From NCBI GenBank assembly GCA_965287045.1, contig OZ336872.1, forward strand, positions 23,064,001-23,128,000: a stretch of 64,000 nucleotides of DNA, in the 5' to 3' direction. Every line of letters begins with the position of its first letter. Positions within the stretch are counted from its first letter, which is position 1. The stretch comes from Carcharhinus amblyrhynchos (lineage: Eukaryota). Both the position numbers and the translations under genes were made by a program. The notes under the pieces are model-generated. The model was not told the origin of the DNA and did no database searches. It saw nothing but the letters and a program-made list of their open reading frames with translations. Of this stretch, positions 5,261 to 61,684 are shown piece by piece.

Positions 5261-5436
5261 AAAAAAGATCTGTATTTGTTCAGGTAGCTGTAATAATTCC
5301 AAAGTACTGTTCTACAGGAGTCGGGAGTTCTCTCAGTTAACGGTCAGCGTTCCTTCCTCAACCACCAAAAGTAGATGACTTTATCGCCACCCTCTAATAT
5401 AGAGCATTTTAAACTGGTAAAAGTTACAATGCTTAC

Positions 5437-5598
5437 TCAAGTACATCTCGGTTGAACTGCTTCTGGCGATTGCCTAAAAACTCGCCAATCATCTGTCTGC
5501 TAAGGCCTTTCCTCTGCAGAAGGAAGTGAGCAATGCCAACAGGGGTGTCGGGAACAAATCCACGCTCAATCAGATACTGCACACCTTTCTCCGGTTTT
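5437..5598 (-). CDS. IQSEC1: IQSEC1 Sec7-domain exon ([53 protein letters not shown])
   Basis: Read by hand; not in the ORF track. Acceptor ttctttgcatag|A, donor GA|gtaagc, 162 nt, phase 2/2. Confidence 0.96.
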
Positions 5599-6744
5599 CT
5601 ATGCAAAGAAAATGAAAATTAGAGTGTTAGACATTTCCAGATAAGCAATGTTCTGAAATATATATTTATTATTACGTAACACAATTATGCACCCATATTT
5701 TGAGACCAACATACAACACTTAAACACCTTTATCTCTCTCTTTTCATTCACAGATCTGGACTTGTGCATACATGACACTGTCACCATGTAAAATTCTTGG
5801 AATTCTCTACTTCACATCATTGTGAAAGCACCATAAAAAGGAGTACAGCAGTTGAAGGACTATACTTATCTTAGACAATAAATGTCAACATCACTTTCAT
5901 TTAGAACATTAATCTCAATCTAGAAGCACTTGAATAAGGAGGAGCTGATATTGGCTTTATGTAGAATGGGACCTACCTGCCAATTTAAATGCTGCTCCTC
6001 TCTATTTGTTTTTCACTTCCCTTCTGAACTTTTTATATTCTGCTTGGTTCTCATTTGTAATACCAACCTAATCATATGCACTCATTTTCAGCTTCATCTT
6101 TTGCCTATCTCGTCCATCATCGAAGGAACTCTTGATGCTTTTTTTCTGATGTATTGATAATACCAGCTTCACTGATGTTCTCAACCCCAAAATGGGCCAC
6201 TCTCTCAGGTACAATAATTTGTTATAAGTTGCACATATAACTAGTTGTACATATAACTTCTTGCTACAGGAATGAGACACAGACTAACTTCAATTGCCCC
6301 ATCTGACTTATATTCCCAGTAGTAGTTTCTCAATAACAAACAAAATTGGCCCCGGCCAATTTCACTGTCTCATGTTCAAGGATTACTGAACAAATTGTTC
6401 TGTTCACAGTTGCCAGCCCCAAATGAGATCACCATAAGTGGGCACTGAACTCTCGACCCTGTTCATCTGCATGCAGACTAGGAAAATGTTTCAGCCAGAG
6501 GAGATTAAGTGATTAATTTTATTGGAAACTGTATTTCCATTTGATCAATTTCCTAATTCTTGTTTGAAAAATAGATTTCCATTCTCATTAATGCATTCCG
6601 TACAGGGTAAAGTATGCAATATTATCAGAGATCAAATTCACTGGAAGCATTATGCATGCTTATAGCAATGATCAATAAGGAAAGAACAAATCAAGACATC
6701 TTAGACATTACAGGGAATCAATCCATTTGGTACATAAGGATTTC

Positions 6745-7290
6745 AGAGGTGCTTCCTAGGTGCAACATGATTTGGTCTCCTAGTCTGAGGAAGGACATTC
6801 TTGTTCTTGAGAGAGTCCAGCAATTCCTGGAATGGCAGGACTGACACATGGAGAGACTGGATTGACTGGGCTTGTACTCACGGGAATTTAGATGAATGAG
6901 AGGGGATTTCATAGAAACATATAAAATCCTGATGGGACTAGACAGGCTAGATGTGGGAAGAATGGTCCCGATGTTGGGGAAGTCCAGAACTAAGGGTCAC
7001 ACTTCAAATATCAGTGATAAGCCGTTCCGGGCTGAACTGAGGAAGAACTTCTTCACTCAGAATTGTGAACCTGTGGAATTCGCTACCACAGAAAGCTGTT
7101 GGGGCCAGTTCGTTAGGTATGTTCAAGAGGGAACTGTACATGGCCCTTGCAGCTAAAGGAATCAAAGGATACGGAGAGAAAACAGGAGTGGGATACTGTA
7201 AGTGCACGATCAGCCAAGATCATATTTCATGGTGGGCGCAGGCACGAAGGGCTGAATGGCCTACTCCTGCACCTACATCCTGTGTTTCTA
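6745..7290 (+). mobile_element. CR1 LINE 3' fragment
   Basis: MRGDFIETYKILMGLDRLD and NLWNSLPQKAV remnants; tail gaatggcctactcctgc. Confidence 0.85.
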
Positions 7291-8367
7291 TAACACCATC
7301 TTTGATCCCTTTTTATGAAAATGAAGGCAGATAGTCTTAAAAAGAACATAACCACGGGTAGAAAGATGGCTTCGATTAACGGATCAGTTACCAAAAGAGC
7401 AGCTAGGTCTTTAAAAGCTAGAGTGCGGTTACAAAAGGTCATAAAAAGACAAATTAAATTCTGCATATCATGGTCCAGAACTTCCGATGTCTGGGGGGGC
7501 TCATACCCCAGAGATACCCAAGAAGATGCAACCTACAATGGGCAATTGCCCTGCATCAAGAAATATCCAATTGTTACCCAGGAAAAGTTAGAAGAGTTAA
7601 AATCACTTCTAACTTTGGGTAACCCAACTACCAACTCCCCCAAATAACCTAGTTTGCCCCCCACCCTTCACTCCTCCAGCGCAGACTTGGGCAGCTGTCT
7701 TACGGTGATATAAACATTTAAGCCTAACTCTATCCTAACATCTATTATGTTATTGCACACCTGAATCTATCTAATGCAGCCTTTCCAGTCACTTAACGTT
7801 CCCAATCAAATATTATGTATAGAATTGAGCTTAAGTACCTTAAGATTGGCAGTGTTCCCATATCTGTTCTGGCTTGCATCATTTGCTCAGATAAAATTGA
7901 TCATATTATCATTTTCATTAGGTGGTTATGGATCCAATGTGCTGAATTCTGGACCTGTTTGAAAGTACTTTTTCCATCTAATAGCTATTTTGCTAAGAAA
8001 CAATCTTTGGCAGTGTCATTCAAAGCCATTCTATTATTTACAGTAGGATGACAATTGCACTCGAGTTCATGGAAATGTTGCAAACCTTTTCACTTTTAGT
8101 TCAGGCCAGATTAAGCCAAGTGAATAATGGACTTTTTAAATACTGCAGCACTAATGAGATCAACAACAAGCTCTGGTAACTAATATCAAGCCAAGCTAAC
8201 CGAGTTATGAATGCCCTTTTCCACAATAATCTAAACAGTCCAAGTCTGCAATAACAGAACTGAATGCATGGTGGTGCTCTGATTCTGTGCTCAGAAATTA
8301 GAAGCATTTTTGAAAGAGTCCATATCGCGCAACCTAACTGCATTCTGGAACTTTTTTTTAAAAAAAA

Positions 8368-8720
8368 TCATTCATGGGACATGGCATCTCTGCCTGGCCA
8401 GCATTTATTACCCATCCCTAGCTGCCCTTGGAGGGCAGTTGAGAGTCAACCACATTGCTGTGGCTCTGGAGTCACATGTAGGCCAGACCAGGTAAGGACA
8501 GCAGATTTCCTTCTCTAAAGGACATGAGTGAACCAGATGGGTTTTTCCAACAATCCACATGGCCTCCTGGTTATGAGTAGATTCTTAATTCCAGACTTTT
8601 AAAAAAATTGAATTCAGATTCCACCACCTGCTGTGGAGAGATTCGAACAGCTCACCAGAACATTAACTGAATTACTGGATTAATTGTTTAGCAGTAATAC
8701 CACTGGGCCATCGCCTCCCA
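8368..8720 (-). mobile_element. Second tRNA-derived SINE family
   Basis: Minus-strand head gggaggcgatggcccagtggtatt; 3' tail shared with the LINE at 40635. Confidence 0.75.
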
Positions 8721-9540
8721 ATAATCTCCACTATTTATAAAGAATTTGCAAAAAAAGGCAAGATAAAATCAGAGGCTGGTAAAAATGGAAATCAGATATG
8801 TCATGCAAAGTAAAACAATGGCACAGTTAAATTCTAGATAAGTGCACATTATTGCTGATGATCTTGTAAATTGTGCGAGGGAATAGAGGCACAAAGTTCG
8901 GCATGGCTGGCCTTATGAAGTTCAACTCATAAAAACACTATGGGTGGGATTTTTTCACCCTGCTGTGTTAGTTGAATAGTGTGGCATGGCAGGAGATATG
9001 AGTGAAAGGTGGAAAATTGGGCTTGCTCCCAATTTAATTGCCTCTCCCGGTGTTGCCAGCCCCGTTCTGTGTTGCGCAGAATGCTGTAAATTATCACCAC
9101 TTTTATCTCCCATGTTCTCACCTGCAAGACAATCAGAATTTTTCAGAAAAAAATGCGCTCTACATCTATGAGGCAAAATGGCTCCACGTTTACACAGCAT
9201 TTTTTTCTTGCATCCAGCAATTGAAAACATTGTGTTTTACTGCCTTGTTTGAACGATCTAAGCTATGATGTGACAACTGCAGAACTGATTGAGTGACTGC
9301 CTGTTACGTATATAGCTCCTATTTTTCAAAGGACCCCCAATCATAAACAATAATGTTGCCTCTTAGGCACTGGATGGATGTGCGACTGGAAGCTGTTGGT
9401 TTATAGCCCACTTTTCACATACAATCTTTTTACTGTAGTTTTATCAGACCCTATGAATACTTTCGCTCTATAGAAGTTGGAAATATATGAACCGCTGATA
9501 CAACTAAAACAAGAATAGCATATAACCAATCAATAAGTTT

Positions 9541-9866
9541 ATAGAATCATAGAATCCCGGCAATGCAGAAAGAGGCCATTCAGCCCATCAAGTCTGCACC
9601 GACCACATTCTCACCCAGGCCCTTTGCCCATAACTCCATGTATTTACCCTTCTAATCCCCTGACACTAAGGGTCAAGTAAGCGCAGCCACTCCACCTAAC
9701 CTGCACATCTTTGGACTGTCGGAGGAAACCGGAGCATTTGGAGGAAACACACATGGATACAGGGAAAACATGCAAACTCCACACCGACAGTGACCTAAGG
9801 CCAGAATTGAACCCAGATCCCTGGCGCTGTGCAGCAGCAGTGCTAACCACTGTGCCACCATGCTGC
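9541..9866 (-). mobile_element. HE1-like V-SINE
   Basis: Reverse complement of the same consensus; (atagaatc) tail. Confidence 0.88.
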
Positions 9867-11352
9867 CCAGACAGAGGTTCCCACACAAATGAGACAGAGT
9901 TCAGAATTCCAGCAGCACTCTTGCCTTGTGAACTGAAGGGGCAGCAACTCTCCCTCCCATTAAAAATGACCAAAAGGTGAGACCCAAGAACATTTTTTCA
10001 ATAAGATAACTTAATTTAAAAACTAGAAAAGACTTCCATAAATTAGGTTTTTGTATGTCATAGTCATAGAAAAGGACATTTGGCCCATCATGCCTTCAGT
10101 GGTCAAAATACTGCCTAACTACTCTAACCCTATTTTCCAGCACTTGGCCCATTGCCTTGTATAAATTGGCATCACAAGTGCACAACTAAATACTTCTCAA
10201 GTGTTTTGAGGGTCTCTGCCTCAACCACCCTTTCAGGCAATGAGTTCTCATCATTCTCCTCACATCCTCCCCTAGACCTTCTGCCCCTTTATGCTCCCTG
10301 GTCATTGATCCCTTCACCAAGGGGAAAGGATTCCTCCTATCTATGCCCCTCAATTTTTTGTTTGCAACTCTTGCCTGTGCCAATTGCTCGTGCCTATCAT
10401 GCGAAAACAAGCATTTATTTGTCATTTGACTCTTCAACTCAATAATGTTTCTCAAGGGTTCCTTCAGTCCTCTTGGGAGGTCAAAAGGGTTCCACGGCTG
10501 GAAAAGTTTGGGAAACACCGAGTTACAGCAACAAACATCTCTATTCTGAAGGCATTTAGTTTGTGTACACTGCCCAAGATAATTCATTACCTCACTGGAC
10601 AAATAAACCTTTTGTTTGCAGTGAAAGGGAAGTTTTAATTGAAGGGAAGAGGAGGACGTCCTTGGAACTGAACTGAATAATCAGTAGGCGTAGCTGGTTG
10701 CTATGAATATGGTTGTTGGTAGTCTCTTCAGAAATCTTGTTCATGGAAGTCTTTCCTCAGGTAATGGGACCTAATTACTTTGTGTTAAACAAACAAATAA
10801 GGTATTATAAATATTGTCTAACACCTTTCCTACTAAAAAGAATTGATCTCTCTTTCAGTCTGACCATCACTTACTCTCTTTGTATTCATCCATCTTCATT
10901 GGGCTTTTTTTGATTTTATATATTGACTGGGTGGATAGATGGGATGATTCTTTTGAACTTTGCCTCATGTGATCTACATATGGAGCACTCAATACTTTAA
11001 CTCATTCTGTTCTAATAGCAGTCAACACAATTCCAGAATACACTCATTAAAGTCTAACCACACAAAAATCATGGATTTCTTTAGTTGCTACATTTTGAAC
11101 CTCGTAAAATATAATTCTTCGTGATCAATAGTGAGAACCAAAAAATATCCGGCTCCCTTTGTACAGCTTACAAGTAAAACAGAATGCACTTTGTATCACA
11201 GCATGAAAACAGTAGATTACTTAGTAAAGCATTATGTATGCTTTTTTAAATGATATGCTGGATTGTGTGTCCAACTGCTGGTGCATTCAAGTGAGCACAG
11301 TAAAAAGTCTGACAACACCAGGTTTAAGTCCAACTGATTTATTTGATAGTAA

Positions 11353-11392
11353 ACTCACAAGCTTTCGGGGTTTGTCCCTTCGTCAGGTGAAT
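11353..11392 (-). ncRNA. Minimal type I hammerhead ribozyme, copy 1
   Basis: AUUCAC-CUGACGA-AGGGACAAACCCC-GAAA-GC-UU-GUGAGU: 6-bp stem I, CUGANGA and GAAA core, palindromic AAGCUU stem III. Confidence 0.72.
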
Positions 11393-11510
11393 ACCACCAT
11401 GCCACTGCCTTCCCTGTATACAAATTGAATGAAACACATTGGACTGAGGTAAACACAGTAAAAAGTCTGACAATACCAGGTTTAAGTCCAACCGATTTAT
11501 TTGATAGTAA

Positions 11511-11550
11511 ACTCACAAGCTTTCGGGGTTTGTCCCTTCGTCAGGTGAAT
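11511..11550 (-). ncRNA. Minimal type I hammerhead ribozyme, copy 2
   Basis: Identical 40-nt motif, 158 nt from copy 1, same strand. Confidence 0.72.
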
Positions 11551-11595
11551 GTGTTTCATTCAATTTGTATACAGGGAAGGCAGTGGCATGGTGGT

Positions 11596-11635
11596 ATTCA
11601 CCTGACGAAGGGACAAACCCCGAAAGCTTGTGAGT
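11596..11635 (+). ncRNA. Minimal type I hammerhead ribozyme, copy 3 (inverted)
   Basis: attcacCTGACGAagggacaaaccccGAAAgcTTgtgagt, read directly on the plus strand. Confidence 0.72.
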
Positions 11636-12244
11636 TTACTATCAAATAAATCGGTTGGACTTAAACCTGGTGTTGTCAGACTTTTTACTGTGTTTACCTC
11701 AGTCCAACGCCAGCAAATCCACATCATGACTGCATTCAAGTGAAGCAGTGAATAGATATACCCAAATGTCGTGACCACAGCTAGCAAGTAGCCGAGATAA
11801 AGATGTGGACTTGGTTGCTTGCTTGGCTAAGTTTTCTGTTATTTCAGTTCATTCAATTTTCTCATACTCAGTTTTGTATGAGTTGGCACTATAGTCCTAG
11901 ATGGCTAGTTCCGATCTCGATCTGCCTCAATCAAATGAGCCAACCATCAATTGTGAACTACATTTACTTTGGGCCAAAATGACAAAAATAAATGCAATCA
12001 TGTGGAGCTAATCAGACAGAGCGAGTAGAAGATCACAAAATCATCCTGTCTTCACAATAGGACATTCTCTTCAAGTATTTTACTGTAAAATTTATTCCTT
12101 ACTTAGCATATAGACAAATTGCATACTGAAAATGCGCTCATACCATAAATAAAAGCACACATACCAGACAATGAGTCACTTGAATAGAAAATGTAAAGGT
12201 TAATCATTTGCATAGATCTATGGGGAAATTTGAGTAAAGAAAAG

Positions 12245-12537
12245 GGGTGGCACAGTGGTCAGCACTCCTGCCTCACAGCGCCAAGGACCTGGGTTCGATT
12301 CCCAGCTTGGGTCACTGTCTGTACAGAGTTTGCATTCTCCCTATTTCTGCATTGGTTTCCTCCCATGGTCCAAAGATGTGCAGGTTAGCTTAATTGGCCT
12401 TGTTAAATTGCCAATTAGTGTCAGGGGGACTAGCTAGGGTATATGCATGAGGTTATGGGGTTAGGACCTGGGTGGGACTGTGGTTGGTATAGACTTGATG
12501 GGCTGAATGGCCTCCTTCTGCACTGTAGGATTCTATG
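12245..12537 (+). mobile_element. HE1-like V-SINE
   Basis: gtggcacagtggtcagcact...gggttcgattcc...ggattctatga. Confidence 0.85.
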
Positions 12538-12766
12538 AAAATTCTCCAAGGTAAATAAATGAAAATGACTTGCATACAGAATATAATTTGTCCAAGATAA
12601 AGAGTGACATTTACTGCCTTTGCTCAACAGGTATACAAAGCTTTTCTTCCAATGTCAGTGACATCTGATTTTATCTGATTTAGGTTGGACTTCCCAATTT
12701 TAGGAAACAATTCACATCATGTGCAATGTAAAGATCTGTTCTTGAGTTTCATTCAATTTGTATACA

Positions 12767-13145
12767 GGGAAGGCAGTGGCATGGTGGTATTCTCACTGAA
12801 TAGTAATCCAAAGACCCAAAGTAATGCTCTGGGGATCTAGAGTGTGAATCCCACCATGGCAGATGGTGAAATTTGAATTCCATAAAAATCTGGAATTAAA
12901 AAGTCTACTGATGACCGTGAAACCATTGTTGATTGTCGTAAAAACCCATCTGCTTCATTAATGTCCTTTAGGGAAGGAAATCAACTGCCCTTACCTGGTC
13001 TAGCCTGCGTGTGATTCCAGACCCACATCAACGTGATTGACCCTTAAATGCCTTGAAATTGCCTGGCAAGTCACTCAGTTCAGGGGCAAAGAGGGAAGGG
13101 AAATAATTGCTGCTCCAGTCAGTGACACCCACATTAATGAATTTA
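12767..13145 (+). mobile_element. Second SINE family, full length
   Basis: gggaaggcagtggcatggtggtatt...gaatcccaccatggcagatggtgaaatttgaattc... Confidence 0.78.
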
Positions 13146-13539
13146 AAAAAAAAAGCAGTAGCTAATCCTCAGATATTTAAAATTTTCATTTTCTAGTATT
13201 TTTGGAAAGAAATAAGCAGTCCTTCAGCATCCTACATACATATATATGTATTTTGATTTAATCACAATTTAAGAACGCCTTATGCTATTGTCTATACCTT
13301 AGTTATTAACTCAGCACCCACCAAACACATCAAAGGAAATATATGATTTCTGATAAAAAATTATGGAAATTTCACGCCTTCACTGAACACTAACAAAATA
13401 CCTAAAACCTTGCATCTAAATACTTAAGCAAAGGGCAACCACCTAATACACTGCAAAGTTGCAGTTCAAGACTTTGGGAAAGGTGGTGGTAGAAAATAGG
13501 GCCAAGTTGATATTGGCTACTCTCACACACAGAAGTTGG

Positions 13540-14000
13540 GTGGCATGGTGTCACAAGAGTTAGCACTGCTGCCTCACAGTGCCAGGGGCCTGGGTTCAAT
13601 TCCAGCCTTGGGTGTCTTTCTGTGTGGAGTTTGCACATTCTCCCCGTGTCTGCATGGGTTTCCTCCGGGTGCTCCGGTTTCTTCCCACTGTCCAAAGGTG
13701 TGCAGGTTAGATGGACTGGCAATGGTAAATTGCTCTAGTGTCCTAAAATGTGTAGATTAGGGGGATTAGCCGTGGGAATAGGGTGGAGAAAGAGGGCCTG
13801 GGTAAGATACACTGTCAGAGCATTGGTACAGACTCAGTGGACCAAATGGCCTCCATCTTCACAAGAGGGATTCTATGTTAGAGGGATTAGTGGGGTAAAT
13901 ACGTGGGGTTACAGGGAAAGGGCCTGGGTGGGATTGTTGTTGGTGCAGACTTGATGGGCCAAATGGCCTCCTTCTGCACTTTAGAGATCCTATGATTCTA
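13540..14000 (+). mobile_element. HE1-like V-SINE with a doubled 3' tail
   Basis: Full head and core; two successive tails ending at about 13878 and 14000. Confidence 0.85.
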
Positions 14001-14354
14001 AGTATGCAACCCAGGCTGCCTGGTCATCCTGTTGTTGTAGGTTGCCTTAGAGCAAGTCTTCAACCATTTCAAGCAATTTTTGTTGATTTTCAATCAGGTA
14101 AATTAAAGGATACTATCCTGGTGGGAGAATACTGACAACCTCCAAATTAATACCCTAATGTCCTCCTTTGCAGTCTGTTTTCTAAAATCAGCAAATCCTC
14201 AAAATTGTGAAAACATGGGCTAAAGGGACACTGTCCTTGACAAATCGACAATAAATCACAGGGCAGCATCTGCATCTACTTTAAAGTACACATCCCGACA
14301 TTACAATCTAAACATAGTGCGTACAATAGAAAGGAGAATGAAATTGCCACGTAC

Positions 14355-15637
14355 TTATTGAAGAGATTCAGGCCAATCCGGTAGTGACGTTTTCGGATGA
14401 TATCATTGCTAAATGCAGGAGAATCCCAGCTGTTTCGAGTCTCCTTGTGATATGTTTGTTTGCTCAACGTTTGCTCTCGTAAACTGTCTCTGGAAGAGGA
14501 CTCAGAGCTACAGTTTATCGTATCGTTGGAGTTTGAAGTGCTGTTGATACTGTCATTGTCCCCATCAGAAAAATCCGACTCCGACTTGCTTTGCCGGTTT
14601 GCCGAGCCGTTGATGGCCAGGTGGCTGTCAATCTGCCGAGGCCGGTGGCGAGCGGGTTCGTCATCACGGTGGAACACTCTTGTGGGTATCGAGTGCGGAA
14701 TATGCTTGGGGCTTCCCCGCTGGCTATTCAGGCCCTGCTCGTATGCGTTCTGTCGCTTTAGTGAGCCCCTGTCCGAACGGTCACTTAAATCAACTGAACT
14801 ATCACTGGGCGGCTCGATAGTTAGTAATGGGAGATGGTCGACACGGAGCCTCGACTCCTGACACTCCAAAGATGGGGTACTCCTGCAGCTCGTGTCAGTG
14901 TCTGGCTTGTCATCCCTGTGGGTCATGGACCAGTATTCCTGGGCAGAATTGACAGACCGGAGGCGGAAGTCTGACTCTGTGCTGGATGGCCTGTCTACGG
15001 ACTGTAAAGAGACAGGAAGTGGAGGGGAAAGTTCTTCCTCGTCTATATACAGGGTGACATCACTGTACGAAGCAGACATTTCATCCAATTTTCTGCGCTC
15101 AGCCTCACGTGCAGATTTAGCGTAAGATAGGCTCTCCATCTCCTCCTCTTTTTGTAAATTTTCTTTGTAACGTTTACCCTGTTCAGTAGGTTGTCCATCG
15201 TCTGTGTGCAAGCTGCGACAATTCAGTGCATCGTCAATCGATTCTGCAAGCGACTTGACTTGCCTTGAGAAGGCATCTTCCAGCTCCGTTATCGCGTCTG
15301 CAAAATCGTTGTTCGCCGCCGGAGACTTGATCACTGCTGAGCCTCCGAGGTCCCCGCAATCCGACTGAACAATGGCTCCTACCTTTCCTGCATCGTCAGT
15401 CATGGACACCTGTTTTCCCTCAAAGAATGAGCTGTGGAGTTTCTCAGGTCCTTCAAAAGAAAACTGCATTCTCATATTGGACAGAACAATGCGCCTGGAC
15501 ATGCGGTTCTCTGACATAGAACTTCGAAGCCTTTCAAAGTTTTTGTTCATTTGATATTGGCGGAATGCAGTCTGAATGGTTCGAGCAGCATGCCTGGTTA
15601 TGAAACGTCCTCCATATTTACGTTCAAGCATCTCCAC
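14355..15637 (-). CDS. IQSEC1: IQSEC1 large exon: IQ motif, Ser-rich linker, start of Sec7 domain
   Basis: Acceptor tttcag|GTGGAGATG, donor AATAA|gtacgt, 1283 nt open. Encodes VEMLERKYGG...AARTIQTAFRQYQM (IQ motif) through RKRHYRIGLNLFNK. Confidence 0.98.
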
Positions 15638-20210: not shown

Positions 20211-20890
20211 AACGGGAACATAAGAACATATGTGGGCCATTCAGCCCTAAGGATATACTGCCATTCAATTTGATCATGATTGGTCTATGACTTAATTTAC
20301 TTCAACACTCTTACCTAACAAAAGTCTATGATTTTTAGTTTGAAATTTTCAGCTGACCTAGCCTCAATAGTTTTTTGGTGAAGAGCTTCAGATTTTTAAT
20401 AACTTTTTACGACAAAGTGCTTCCTTACATCACCCTAACTGTTCTGGACTTTCCCACTCGAGTAAACACTTTCCTCTTGATTTGTCCTATCAAATTCTTT
20501 CATTAGCAAAAGCACCTCAATCAGATCGCCCCTTGATCTTCATAGTAAAGGGAACATACATTCATCAAAGCCAGGATGTCAAAGCATATGTCTACAGTAA
20601 GGTCGTGGATGGCAAAGGCCTTCTTTGCCAAGTGAATGGACACTCTGAAGGTAACTGTGGAGGGGGAGTTGTCATCATTCCCCAATACATATTACAAGTT
20701 AGCCACAAGTGGAATCTAATCAAAATTATTTTAAAAAGGGGAGTGTTGTTTGAAAGTTGCAACTCGTCTTGGGAGCATGATATATACAATTCTTGCAGTA
20801 CTTCTGGGCAATTCAGAATTTATTCATTTGCCTTATGCACTGGTGTATAGACTAACGTAAAAGCCAACAGTGTGATTAGATGCTCGTTAC

Positions 20891-21173
20891 CTGTTTATCC
20901 TGCAGATCCGAGGAGAGCTCATAGCTTTCTGACAGTGATCTGGAGCGCTTGATTGCGTCTTCCTCGGCTTGTTTTCGGAGTATGGAGGTGGAATGTTGAA
21001 GCTTGGGCCGCCTCGGACGCTGCTGACCAGGTGAGGCAGGAAATGATACCAAAGATGAACCATCAAACTGGTCAGGGCTGGCAGCAGCGCTATGAGTTAT
21101 TGGACCCTGGCTGTAGCTTGAAGGGCTGTCGAGAGAGGTTCCAGTCTCGCTTCCTGGAGCATCACCCTCCACA
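20891..21173 (-). CDS. IQSEC1: IQSEC1 internal coding exon (VEGDAPGSETGTSLDSPS...ELSSDLQDKQ)
   Basis: Acceptor ttttccttttag|TGTGGAG, donor CAG|gtaacg, 283 nt. The translation resembles the IQSEC1 N-terminal region including RRPKLQHSTSILRKQAEE. Confidence 0.96.
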
Positions 21174-24100
21174 CTAAAAGGAAAACAATTCAGATCAGCA
21201 ACAAGCAGAAAACTTGTTTGTTTTACCCATTCACTGACCTAAAGATTTGCTGGAGTCAGTGACACATGAATGGAAATATAGTTAATATAAAATTACCAGG
21301 TGCATTAGTCCTATTATAAAACAGTTCAAAGTACAGATTCTTTGTGGGTGTAAAGCCACAGAATATTCAAATCCTCGAAAAGGATCAAGGTAGTTATTTC
21401 AGTTGGATGGTTCTGCGAGAATACCTCAATTCAGCCAGCAGCAGCCAAACCTTCAGCTGAAAGCAAAATTTAAAACAAACTAATTTCTTCCACAGTGATC
21501 CAACATTCTCTCCTTACCAACGCGAATCAACAAACACACATTTAAAAAAAACACAACCACGTCCGCATACGCAGCATTCTTCTCTAATATCCTTCAAAAG
21601 GTAATTTGAAAGATAACATTACATGATTGTATCCTATCATTTTACCCCTTTGTGACAACTGAAACAAGCCTGCGAAAAGAGGGTGGTGCTAATCTCATCC
21701 TGCAAGTACATTTCTTCCATTACTTTCCTGACCTTTGGAGCAACGGCAAAGCAATTATCTTTTATGGTATGCATGCAAACATCCAGGATACAGTTCAAAC
21801 AGATATCGGAGGCAATTCAGATTTGTCTTTAAAAAAAATTAATATGTTGCAGATAGAATGCATTTTAAACAAATTTAAAAAGCTAAAAAGCAAGGTAGTT
21901 GTAGATGAGTCAGATGTAAAAATCATCCTATGCGAACACTACATTAGGCATGTACTTTTTTCAAGAACTGTTCTGCAAAAAAATCAGCATGTAGCAGAAA
22001 TGTATTTGGATAAATTGCTCCCAAGAGTATTTTGCAACTTTTCATCTTTCAAGGGCTTAACGGCAGAAGAAAAATTAAGAACTGCAGGAATAATAAACGA
22101 ATGCACTTTTATATCCTCACTGAACAAGACCATCATTTGGTAGGATCTCCAACAGAAACACTAATTACAAACAAAATAAAAGCAATAGGTTTTCCCTTTC
22201 GGACCAAATGAAAATTCACCATTGAATGGAGTTGAAGAGTTTGCACCAACAGTTAACGCAGTTAAACAGCAGTAAGGCCCTTATTAATCTAAGCCGGAAA
22301 CAAAATTAAGATGGATAGTAAATGCCTTTGTGCAAGCGTTGCAGAATTTTAATTTAAAATGATCCCCAGTGGCACTGATGGGTAGCCCAGAACCTGAAGG
22401 AGTTTCTGATGTTGACCATTGTAGGGTGCAGACTACAACCACTTACCTCGGCTTCACAAAATGTGCTTGATGTTCTTTGGTTTTAAAATTTAGCTACCAA
22501 AAAGTTCCCTTTTGTCACAGTTATGCGCAGGATTACCAAATGCATTTTTTACCACCTATTTTACACTGCAGTTTTGAAATAATTGGTACTGCATTCGCTG
22601 AGGACTTCTTCCCTTCATCACTGAATTTCTAATTGCCATCGTTCACCACAGTTTGAAAACTGGTTCCAATCGCGGTACTGTACACTGAATCAGTATCAAT
22701 GTATCTTAAATGTCTGGCCCTGGTGGGAGCATCAATCTAATTCTGCAAGACAAACTCTTGAATTCAAACACTTTTCAATTATTTGCTTCAGCTTCTCCTG
22801 TCTCAGAGAAATATTCTATAACTGCCATAATACTATGTTCTGGAAATTGTGACATTGCAGGAGAATGGAAAATATACTACAATGATGCAAATGCATAAGG
22901 GAAGAAAATATATCCTTGTATCTTAAATTAAATCTGCAGGAAGGACACAAATCACACATTCATGTGGGGCATACTGGATATGTTGAAACTGTTCTGGGTA
23001 ATATCTATGAAGGGAACACCCAAGATATTTTAATCCTATTCAGTGCGTGAGCTTATATCCAAAGTCATATTCTGATAACAAACCCAAATCATTTCATTCA
23101 GTGCTTGGTAATGAATAAACCATGGGTTTACTTAGTCATTTAATATAAGAAATCAATTATTCAGTATAGAGTAGACAAGTTTCTCTTTGCACAAGAAGCA
23201 ATGGGGTTAGCTGCTTCACAACAATCTCAGTTTCTGCAAAATGTTCTTTGGAGGAAGGGGAATGGGGCAAAAAAAAGTAGAAAGGGGGTAGAGGTAGACA
23301 CAGCAAACAAAAAGATGAAAAAAGCTTCATATTTATTAGCGAGATTACATAGAGTTAAAATCTTTTCACGTAATACTTTTCTTGATAATAGATTAATTTT
23401 TTAAAATCCCAAATAAAGGTAACAATCTGCATCTAATTTTGCTTGGCACAATCTACCTTTAGGAAAGTCTAGAATATACTTAGACAGCAGGAGAAGAATT
23501 TGAAGGCTGGTGAGCGATTGGCACTGCCATCCCAAAAGTCAGTGCCTAACGTACAGACAATGATTCTCAAACTCCCACTGTCACTTAACACTCACTTAAG
23601 TGTTGGTTGGCAGGAGGTAGGATTTCCATCCATCCTTGGAAGGAAGTTCTATCCGTGAGTGCCAAATTGGCCGACAGGTCTTCAACATGGCCAGCATAGT
23701 GCTGCAGTGGCCAAAACTGGTACTGCAGTGCTCTGCCTGTAACTATGCCCTCAGGCCTTTGAAAAGGTAAGTCCTGAGGGAGGGGGGAAGGAGGGAGGGA
23801 GGATTGGGGGAGGGGGAAGGGAGGCAGGATTGGGGGGGGGTGCAATGGGGTCAGCCGCTGGTGTTTGGGAGGGAGGGAGATTGTAGCTTCAGGGCTCCAG
23901 TACGACAGGTTCCAGAGCTCCAACATCCCATGGGGAAAAACTCTGAGGTGGCCTCAAGAGTGAGGCACCCATCACGCAACCCCCCCCCCCCCTTCTCACC
24001 AGAGATGGAGAAAAGTTTAAACATTTTCCTACCTTAACTGCACCCACCAGCCTAAAAATGGAATCAGGAAAATGCCCTGAAGAGGGTGCTTCACGGTCTT

Positions 24101-59001: not shown

Positions 59002-61546
59002 ATAGAGCATTACAGCACAAACAGGCCCTTTGGCCCACAAGTTGCACCGATCACATCAATATCTACCAATCCATAGACCTATCTATAACTCCCAATCCCA
59101 TTAAGTCCCATATACTCATCCAGAAGTCTTTTAAAAGACCCCAGCGAGTTCGCCTCCACCACCACTGACGGCAGCCGATTCCATTTACTCACCACCCTCT
59201 GAGTGAAAAACTTACCCCTAACATCACCTCTGTAGTTGCTTCCCTGCACCTTAAATCTGTGTCCTCTCGTAGCGACCATTTCAACCTGGGGAAATAGCCT
59301 CTGAGAATCCACCCTATCTATTCCTCTCAACATTTTATAAACCTCTATCAGGTCGCCTCTCAACCTTCGTCTCTCCAGGGAGAAGAGTCCCAGCTCCCTC
59401 AACCTATCTACATAAGGCATGCCTCCCAATCCAGGCAACATCCTTGTAAATCTCCTCTGTACCCTTTCAATAGCTTCTACGTCCTTCCTATAGTGAGGCG
59501 ACCAGAACTGCGCACATTACTCCAACTGGGGCCTGACAAGGGTCTTATAAAGTTGCAGCATTACCTCCTGATTCCTAAACTCAATCCCTCGATTAATGAA
59601 GGCCAGTACACCATACGCCTTCTTAACCACATCCTCTACTTGTGAGGCCGATTTAAGAGTCCTGTGGACCCGGACCCCAAGATCCTTCTGCTGCTCAACA
59701 CTGCTAAGACTCCTGCCCTTGATAGTGTACTCGTTCATCCCATTGGTCCTGCCAAAATGGACGACTACACATTTATCCGCGTTGAAGTCCATCTGCCACT
59801 TCTCCGCCCAGTCTTGCATCCTATTTATGTCCTGCTGCAACTTCTGACATCCTTCCAGACCATCCACAACACCACCGACCTTCGTGTCATCAGCGAACTT
59901 ACTAACCCATCCCTCCACTTCCTCATCTAGGTCATTTATGAAAATGACAAACAGCAAGGGTCCTAGAACAGATCCCTGGGGCACTCCACTGGTGACTGAC
60001 CTCCATGCAGAAAAAGACCCATCCACAGCCACTCTCTGCCTTCTGTAGGCAAGCCAGTTCTGGATCCACAAGGCCAAAGCCCCTTGGATCCCATGCCCTC
60101 TCACCTTCTCAAGAAGTCTTGCATGGGGGATCTTATCAAACGCCTTGCTGAAGTCCATGTACAACATGTCCACTGCACTTCCTTCGTCAATGTGTTCAGT
60201 CACATTTTCAAAGAACTCAACTAGGCTCGTAAGGCACGACCTGCCCTTGACAAAACCATGCTGACTATTTCTGATCATGCTAAACCTCTCCAAATGCTCA
60301 TAAATCTTGTCCCTCAGAAGCCTCTCCATCAGCTTACCAACCACTGAGGTCAGACTCACCGGTCGGTAATTTCCCGGGCTATCTCTGTTCCCTTTCTTGA
60401 AAATAGGAACCACATCCGCAATCCTCCAATCCTCTGGAACCTCTCCCGTCTCCATTGACGATGCAAAGATCATCGCCAGGGGCTCTGCAATCACCTCCCA
60501 CAGTAACCTGGGGTACATCCCATCTGGTCCTGGCGACTTATCTATTTTGATAGAATTCAAAAGTTCTAACACATCCTCTTGCTTAATACCCACATACTCA
60601 AATCTTTTCCATCTGCTGCAAACCTGTAGCAAAATCTCCCAGATCAGTTTCCACCGTGAATACTGAGGCAAAGTACTCATTAAGCACCTCTGCCATTTCT
60701 TCTGGTTCCACACAGACCTTTCCCCCTTCACCTTTTATAGGTCTTATCCCTTCTCTTCTCATCCTTTTACTTTCCACATATTTATAAGGCGGCCTTGGGA
60801 TTCTCCTTAATCTTACCCACTAAGGCCTTCTCATGACCCCTTCTGGCTCTCCTAATTTCCCTTTTAAGCTCCTTCCTACAATCCTTATACTCCTCTAGAT
60901 CCTTAACATCTCCTAGCTCCCTGAACCTTTTGTACACATTCCTTTTCCTCCTGACTAGGTTCACCACAGCCTTCATGCACCATGGTTCCCGCGACCTACG
61001 AAAACCTCCTTGTCTCATCAGAACGTTGTCGCGCAGAGCTCCAGACAAACATTCCTTGAATATCCGCCACCTTCCTTCTGTACTTTTCCCCCAAGAATGC
61101 CTCCTTCCAGTTTATTTGTCCAATTAACTTCCTGACGTCTTCATATTTCCCCTTACTCCAGACAAACACCTTCCTAGCCTGCCTGATCCTATCTCGTTCC
61201 AATGCAAACGTGAAGGAGATAGAATTATGATCACCATTCCCAAGATGCTCTCCTACCGAGAGATCCGTCACCTGTCCTGGTTCATTCGCCAGTACCAGGT
61301 CAAGTACAGCCTCTCCTCTCGTAGGCTTATCCACGTACTGTGTCAGGAAACCTTCCTGAACACACCTAACAAACTCCTCCCCATCCAAACCCCTTACCCT
61401 TGGGATATTCCAATCGATGTTTGGGAAATTGAAGTCTCCCATCACGACAACTCTGTTATTACTACATCTCTCTAGAATCTGTTTCCCTATCTGCACCTCA
61501 ACTTCCCTGTCACTATTGGGCAGCCTACAGAATACACTCAGCAAAG
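59002..61546 (-). mobile_element. 5'-truncated CR1 (HER1-like) LINE; ORF2 endonuclease C-terminus plus RT, frameshifted
   Basis: ORFs 60996-61589 (VVVMGDFNFPNIDW, DHN), 59517-60731 (NYRPVSLTS, GVPQGSVLGPLLF, KFADDTK) and 59079-59441. Candidate 8-bp TSD TTCTGAAC at 58994-59001 and 61547-61554. Confidence 0.93.
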
Positions 61547-61684
61547 TTCTGAACTGTATATCAAATAAATTTCTAGAGTTTGCTGCCATGATTTACTGGC
61601 AATGTGTGGAATTACAATACATTGGGTCTTGACATGCACCAATAATTGTCAGCAAGTTAAATTAGGTTTTCAGGGTCCAAAAAC

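Follow-up and report, generated by a model that had tools for sequence, protein, structure and literature searches.

Three hammerhead motifs in a shark IQSEC1 intron are likely passive cargo of a single Penelope-like element insertion

The three minimal hammerhead motifs found in an IQSEC1 intron of Carcharhinus amblyrhynchos all lie within one 437-bp insertion with a 13-bp target-site duplication (TSD) at its ends. We consider it probable, at roughly 0.78, that this is a single 5'-truncated insertion of a Penelope-like element (PLE) and that the motifs are passive cargo, predicted not to cleave the IQSEC1 pre-mRNA. The parts of the insertion, their order, the TSD, the local source of the spacer and the parent element were observed directly in the window (the whole stretch of 64,000 nt analysed, positions 23,064,001 to 23,128,000 of contig OZ336872.1) and in the genome. 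Predicted folding suggests that the locus is likely an ordinary insertion scar with an untidy junction, and inactive.

The insertion consists of three 3'-end fragments of a high-copy PLE and two copies of a local 47-nt segment, S. The motifs are the starts of the three fragments, which come from one 136-nt unit. Read along the plus strand, the insertion runs TSD, fragment A reversed (unit 97 to 1), S reversed, fragment B reversed (112 to 1), S, fragment C (1 to 136) and TSD. The left TSD copy (11282-11294, plus strand) was recognised as the longest word common to both flanks. Arm A (11296-11392, minus strand) holds unit 1-97, the short, tail-less end of the family, with its motif at 11392-11353 and a nominal cut after 11359. 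It is joined, via the same 4-nt overlap as at the junction of S and arm C, by the second copy of S (11389-11435, minus strand), which is identical to 11553-11599 and 12746-12792. The extra middle copy B (11439-11550, minus strand, unit 1-112) has its motif at 11550-11511 and a nominal cut after 11517, and is followed by the captured segment S (11553-11599, plus strand), the last 4 nt of which overlap the start of arm C. Arm C (11596-11731, plus strand) holds unit 1-136, including a tail of about 40 nt, with its motif at 11596-11635, antisense to IQSEC1. The right TSD copy (11731-11743, plus strand) shares its first base with the element end.

The donor of S lies about 1.0 kb from the insertion (12746-12792, plus strand) and is composed of unique flank and the head of a high-copy repeat, which we take to be a SINE; read depth climbs in four runs from 12779 onward. 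The unique 24-nt part of S has three places in the 2.9-Gb genome, two in the insert and one at the donor. The B-S junction of the 158-nt unit occurs a single time genome-wide. Among the three copies there are no substitutions in 120 motif nucleotides and two elsewhere: arm A has one private G>A at unit 58 and copy B one private G>A at unit 77, each copy thus being one base off C, and one of these transitions is at a CpG. B and C have in common an allele that is found in only 1 of 42 other copies.

A preliminary description of this DNA, made from its letters, had reported three identical 40-nt motifs, two of them spaced 158 nt apart on the minus strand and one inverted. All of this holds, with the motifs at 11596-11635 (plus), 11511-11550 (minus) and 11353-11392 (minus), and U17 sits at both of the cut positions it named, 11517 and 11359. 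The motifs are indeed identical, but the repeated unit exceeds them, the copies being 97, 112 and 136 nt long. As a side observation, positions 11296-11692 form a near-perfect intronic hairpin, which makes them a possible target of A-to-I editing or of processing into small RNAs, and thousands of insertions of the family would give similar hairpins.

The host is an IQSEC1-like gene on the minus strand, with Sec7 exon matches at 5433-5606 and 1639-1767. Exon 5439-5597 is identical to human IQSEC1 at 52 of 53 residues (105.9 bits, against 98 bits for IQSEC2), in a paralogue comparison that consists of PDB hits, IQSEC3 being absent among these. Gene identity is taken from this Sec7 match together with the 3' end of the upstream exon on the PDB chain. 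The large upstream exon (14355-15637, minus strand, 5' boundary approximate) was recognised as an open reading frame whose 3' end maps to IQSEC Sec7 constructs, and a GT splice donor adjoins it at 14354; the downstream Sec7 exon (5437-5598, minus strand) is supported by PDB and Sec7 matches. Because the flanking exons map to adjoining residues of one PDB chain (the end of the upstream exon to residues 7-26, exon 5439-5597 to residues 28-80), 5599-14354 is a single intron, and the insert lies within it, as had been proposed. From translation and recall we take 20876-21238 (minus) to be likely a further IQSEC1 exon, 59517-61592 (minus) a LINE-like RT fragment and 12246-12538 (plus) a tRNA-like SINE copy.

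The 136-nt unit has 2229 first-look candidates in the genome, the best 40 of which, self aside, are 96-98% identical to it. Since the 34-nt motif core has 318 exact genome copies, the motif is not due to chance, yet neither is it rare; a 31-nt word downstream of it has 5,888. The coding capacity of the family is seen at two loci, L194 and L195. The latter shows the complete layout of the element. An inverted short arm is followed by a direct repeat; the reading frames begin directly after the unit and encode RT, a CX4CxxC linker and a GIY-YIG-like terminus, and the direct repeat recurs about 3 kb further along. RVT_1 is above the Pfam cut-off in L194 (32.5 against 29.6 bits) and below it in L195. 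The GIY-YIG domain of L195 is assigned from a weak, sub-threshold match (E 0.032; 15 bits against a cut-off of 22.6) and its position C-terminal to RT, and a YLIxC...WYIG motif is visible. Both translations contain the linker CHSNLCKTC, which fits the CX2-5CxxC pattern between RT and EN that, in the accessible part of PMC8557442, defines Neptune and is shared with Nematis. Judged from these domains the parent is an EN+ PLE, and its clade is likely Neptune-type, an assignment made by the linker.

Long open frames at L194:1379-3241 (620 aa) and L195:647-3444 (587 and 462 aa) suggest recent activity of the family. The closest named proteins are from shark genomes, where the endonuclease end of the element is also fused into annotated gene models (FAM210B, XRCC5, septin 5a and a PPP1R12A-like gene); these fusion proteins (P0008-P0010, P0014, P0020, P0022, P0024, P0025) may reflect exonisation or annotation error.

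Truncation at the 5' end is usual, with 65 of 96 sampled copies beginning at most 30 nt upstream of the motif or further 3', and the short ends of the family cluster at unit 93-101. At unit -2 to 4, where 10 of 55 copies end (0.026 per base against 0.013-0.018 nearby), the excess of ends is too weak to claim unit position 1 as the start of the element transcript. A TATA-like run lies about 30 nt upstream of that position in another copy (L014:1441-1510).

The identification of the motif as a PLE-type minimal hammerhead on the pre-mRNA strand is borne out. Its features match those listed for the minimal type I hammerheads in the pLTRs of metazoan PLEs (Cervera and de la Pena 2014, PMC4209133, as far as described there): CUGANGA and GAAA boxes, one extra base between positions 9 and 10.1, a G10.1-C11.1 pair, a palindromic 15.2-16.2, location in a terminal repeat and many solo and opposite-strand copies. 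The short stem III is palindromic as described, but the part that pairs is AGCU (A15.1-U16.1) rather than AAGCUU, the outer A and U of which are core residues 14 and 17. A general minimal-hammerhead pattern has at least 43,288 exact matches in the genome, from many PLE subfamilies whose stem II sequences vary yet stay paired, and its reversed control has one; the genome-wide count of the motif is thus at least 43,288, against a single occurrence of the 158-nt unit junction. About 4,000 are reported for coelacanth and 9,000 for Xenopus (PMC4209133), obtained with different search methods. An Rfam scan returned no hammerhead family at E up to 10; miRNA hits in the same scan were rejected, being below cut-offs and reflecting the long hairpin only.

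Among 179 sampled motifs the extra base is A in 178 (most sampling patterns required it). Stem II is of about 3 bp only, as first suspected, with 3 pairs in the subfamily of the window; at its second pair, G-C occurs in 124 and A-U in 44 of the 179, at its third G-C in 159 and A-U in 11, these figures counting copies and not independent events. The second pair is formed in 172 of 179 motifs, a number that slid registers lower to 131-132. Since it alternates between G-C and A-U, the fold has been kept across subfamilies. Stem I is paired, with few double changes. Position 17 is U in 143 of the sampled motifs, and U17 is the slowest choice of cleavage site. The CUU triplet conforms to the NUH rule as described in PMC6908138. 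Differences from the hammerheads of PMC4209133 are the U at position 17 and the 3 pairs of stem II, compared with 7-8 in Schistosoma. No description of shark PLE hammerheads was found in a literature search that mostly lay outside subscription journals; one cartilaginous fish is included in a 2026 preprint, according to its accessible text (10.64898/2026.07.22.740005).

The inverted arm is an ordinary feature of the family. In a close-match sample of 59 loci (57 after two double fetches were dropped), a divergent partner lies within 1.5 kb in 30 of 57 and a same-strand partner in none. A second sample, taken from the first 100 listed places of the word downstream of the motif, held 96 copies at 79 loci once four duplicates were dropped, and at 54 of these loci an inverted arm is joined within 600 nt. 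The suggestion that the inverted copy serves as a built-in antisense silencer is therefore not supported, such an arm being the family norm. One long and one short end were found at 53 of the 54 two-arm loci (L106-L193), and the arms in the window end at 136 and 97. In 24 of 53 loci the 5' reach of the short arm exceeds that of the long arm by over 10 nt; for this reason neither arm can have been copied from the other there, and these loci therefore need two separately RNA-primed cDNAs. The two-arm copies fit a model in which a pair of cDNAs starts from two sites, with both strands used for priming, and two RT start sites were found in vitro for an anole PLE (PMC11167929, in the part available). 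Inverted pLTRs with a 30-40-bp tail, TSDs and captured host DNA have likewise been described for PLEs (PMC8557442, PMC3846280, in the accessible text). The window copy agrees with Neptune-type EN+ PLE insertions as presented in the available parts of these three sources in its 5' truncation, the inverted copy at its 5' end, its TSD, a 30-40-bp tail on one arm only and a parent with a C-terminal GIY-YIG-like domain and a CX2-5CxxC linker. It differs from them in its third fragment and two 47-nt copies of local DNA.

Tandem copies are less usual. Short tandems with a gap of 115-145 nt have 15 matches genome-wide, the window locus included. Five of the other 14 (L091, L093, L094, L097 and L104) have an inverted arm, an extra middle copy and a mirror arm within a 9-13-bp TSD; of the remainder, seven seem to be adjacent copies from distinct subfamilies, and two contain no more than a half-motif that arose by chance. 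The extra tandem copy, rarer than the inverted one, likely arises from repeated re-priming during repair of the 5' junction, as far as these builds can tell. Three details of other loci may be recorded here. L091 (about 1452-1673, reverse-oriented) has three motifs with a 72-nt tandem, the shortest period seen, in one TSD-bounded insertion, and two of its motifs are without the 3' strand of stem I. The three-part insertion of L094 (about 1593-1670, reverse-oriented) has as its spacer a GA-rich mini-repeat that matches nothing in the 1.4-kb flanks. Junctions at unit -41 to -44 in L091, L093, L097, L115 and L116 point to a possible preferred point of fold-back or slippage.

How the window locus was assembled can be proposed in some detail. 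Both outer arms carry the unique local segment S, joined identically in each, so that one of them is a DNA-level copy of the other, a conclusion to which the rare allele common to B and C adds further evidence; and because C holds unit 98-136, missing from A, C would be the original arm. The element would have nicked both strands, and cDNA would have been primed at its two usual start sites, near unit 136 and unit 97. The long cDNA may have halted at unit 1, jumped via a 4-nt overlap to DNA 1 kb off and copied 47 nt. Its end would then have folded back and copied itself to unit 112, giving copy B, before being released. The released end would have re-primed at the start of the captured S for a second round of copying, which would yield S and A, and the short-end cDNA would finally have joined this last copy and the gap would have closed. 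The order of events and the polymerase are read from one locus. The step of flank capture is uncommon, because captured flank of at least 15 nt was found at 1 of 54 other junctions, with 1.5-kb flanks searched. For R2 junctions there is published evidence of snap-back synthesis that uses cDNA or nearby DNA as its template (PMC11371274), and templated insertions and fold-backs are described for L1 (PMC11702581), both as far as the accessible text goes. A cDNA end that primes on itself or on nearby DNA before joining is common to those systems and our proposal; there the evidence is experimental, while here it is drawn from sequence, for a PLE and with two rounds. Rolling-circle copying of a 158-nt circle was rejected as the origin, the unit with its spacer being found nowhere else in the genome and S having the orientation opposite to that templated by the IQSEC1 pre-mRNA at the donor.

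Alternatively, the same PLE insertion may have received copy B and the captured segment at a later time, by replication template switching inside the palindrome. Palindromes are generally prone to such rearrangement, and A, B and C, being one base apart each, indicate events close in time without fixing their order. We nevertheless regard this as unlikely, as the TSD and both family-typical ends are intact, the outer arms both end on S with an identical junction, and each of the five other loci of the same build is one TSD-bounded unit.

The fate of the motifs in the transcript depends on the inverted arm. The preliminary description held that the inverted copy is transcribed first and can pair with either ribozyme, which agrees with the predicted nascent folds: B is paired with the inverted arm at 0.989 at five transcript lengths, and afterwards A at 0.999. 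In the pre-mRNA the inverted arm would thus pair with the emerging B and end in a hairpin of about 143 bp with S and A, the final predicted fold, and two free hammerheads are predicted never to be present together. Whatever the transcript length modelled, one tandem copy is predicted to be sequestered by the inverted arm, which would act as a block and not as a switch. In the final fold the loop leaves copy B unengaged, with both stem I and stem II in place, which counts against a fully locked structure.

This free copy raises the question whether B is occasionally cleaved on its own, with the help of a PLE protein or a transcript in trans, the intron being nicked and no circle being released. 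In favour of this, protein-assisted cleavage is reported for the hammerhead of an anole PLE, where the motif is dispensable for insertion (PMC11167929, in the available part), and near-intact reading frames of the family exist. We consider it very unlikely: single minimal PLE motifs are inactive in vitro in the accessible data of PMC4209133, stem II has three pairs, and the 5' ends of family copies do not pile up where the cut would fall (unit 33-37 has 7 of 82 and unit 38-45 has 14 of 96, equal per base).

Other sequencing runs bear on the reality of the structure. In four of four runs (X3, X5, X6, X7; X5 is from the same study as the best-matching run and is possibly not independent of it) the contigs of both flanks stop within the element, with left-flank differences from the window of 4/617, 1/600, 14/620 and 18/605 bases, respectively. 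These insertion ends are common to runs of three organism labels (A, B and C, not to be confused with the fragments), the contigs breaking inside the insert. Because the ends occur in runs of all three, the insertion predates the split of these organisms and, judged from these runs, has persisted. No joint that skips the insert, as an empty site would give, was found among the best 15 of 2211 joints. Depth is slightly raised at 11394-11418 in X6 and X7, which hints only weakly, if at all, at the junction between S and the element. Sequencing is known to produce fold-back chimeras, and the B-S junction is unbridged by any contig listed in four of four other runs (X3, X6, X7, X12), as would be expected if the middle copy were an artefact of assembly or library fold-back. 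Short-word assembly graphs, however, lose links between high-copy repeats, both outer ends are present in four of four runs, the same build occurs at five other loci, and the private transitions of A and B, one of which is at a CpG, are unlike a read artefact. An artefact is hardly credible in our view.

According to a further proposal of the preliminary description, the two tandem motifs could act as a dimeric ribozyme within the pre-mRNA and release a 158-nt circularisable monomer, regulated by the inverted copy. The tandem is on the sense strand, core residues are intact in both copies, and the arrangement does allow a valid nested dimer fold in which all pairs are canonical; it is in the native context that this fold is predicted to be blocked. 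Forcing the dimer at 37 C costs 14 kcal/mol for the tandem alone, without the inverted arm, 18.6 for the construct proposed in the preliminary description and 145 in the native context, and more at 20 C, in a folding model that ignores tertiary contacts, so that small gaps are no proof of inactivity while 145 kcal/mol would be hard to overcome. The dimer is also predicted to be 10 kcal/mol worse than two open monomers. In vitro, dimeric and trimeric constructs of minimal PLE hammerheads cleave weakly (PMC4209133), and eight of nine Xenopus retrozyme dimers were without cleavage (10.64898/2026.07.22.740005), as far as these sources are accessible. Dimeric cleavage and a 158-nt circle thus appear unlikely on modelled folding, self-cleavage of the pre-mRNA is not supported with one tandem copy predicted to be held by the inverted arm throughout, and the combined model, whose unit is moreover single-copy, is the least credible of the readings weighed.

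Compared with non-LTR retrozymes (defined in PMC7229834; see also 10.64898/2026.07.22.740005, both in their accessible text), the locus has two same-strand type I hammerheads, a PLE origin and low GC, and in form its tandem has the two units that the preprint demands, with two motifs 158 nt apart, about 1.6 periods, that are missing from TRF output. In contrast to retrozymes, its motif is minimal and not canonical, its 158 nt are shorter than their circles of 170-400 nt, and a perfect antisense arm is attached. A dispersed or amplified unit was not found, the unit junction occurring once and the spacer three times, all at the locus. Because this junction is present once genome-wide, the 158-nt unit has never moved as a retrozyme, and its portrayal as a miniature retrozyme is not supported. 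The few domesticated intronic hammerheads of amniotes (RECK and others; PMC6155905, as far as described there) share with it the position on the sense strand of an intron; those are canonical and deeply conserved, whereas the window motif is minimal, young and one of thousands. No sign of selection on the window hammerheads was seen in a comparison of the three copies, whose substitution counts do not discriminate, and of the insertion ends in the runs of organisms A, B and C.

A more far-reaching interpretation, which we hold to be doubtful, is that the locus is a stillborn retrozyme: short tandems would be born at PLE integration via re-priming at the 5' junction and silenced only by the inverted arm. 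The 2026 preprint, in its available part, derives retrozymes from PLE ends and leaves the first tandem to local amplification (10.64898/2026.07.22.740005). If true, the stillborn-retrozyme interpretation would supply the missing first step from a PLE end to a non-LTR retrozyme, and a tandem that lost its inverted arm would become a unit capable of the dimer fold and transcribed by the host. The five further loci of the same build in this genome are test cases for it.

Under the preferred reading of a single PLE insertion with passive cargo, the consequence for IQSEC1 itself is likely none, and the significance of the locus lies with the element. The genome of this shark holds at least 43,288 minimal hammerhead motifs. 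At the window locus, the captured local DNA is a tracer of arm-to-arm copying at the DNA level. Together with the 24 of 53 two-arm copies, the locus is a record of PLE integration that fits the one in vitro study, and two-site priming in PLEs would thereby gain support at the genome level.
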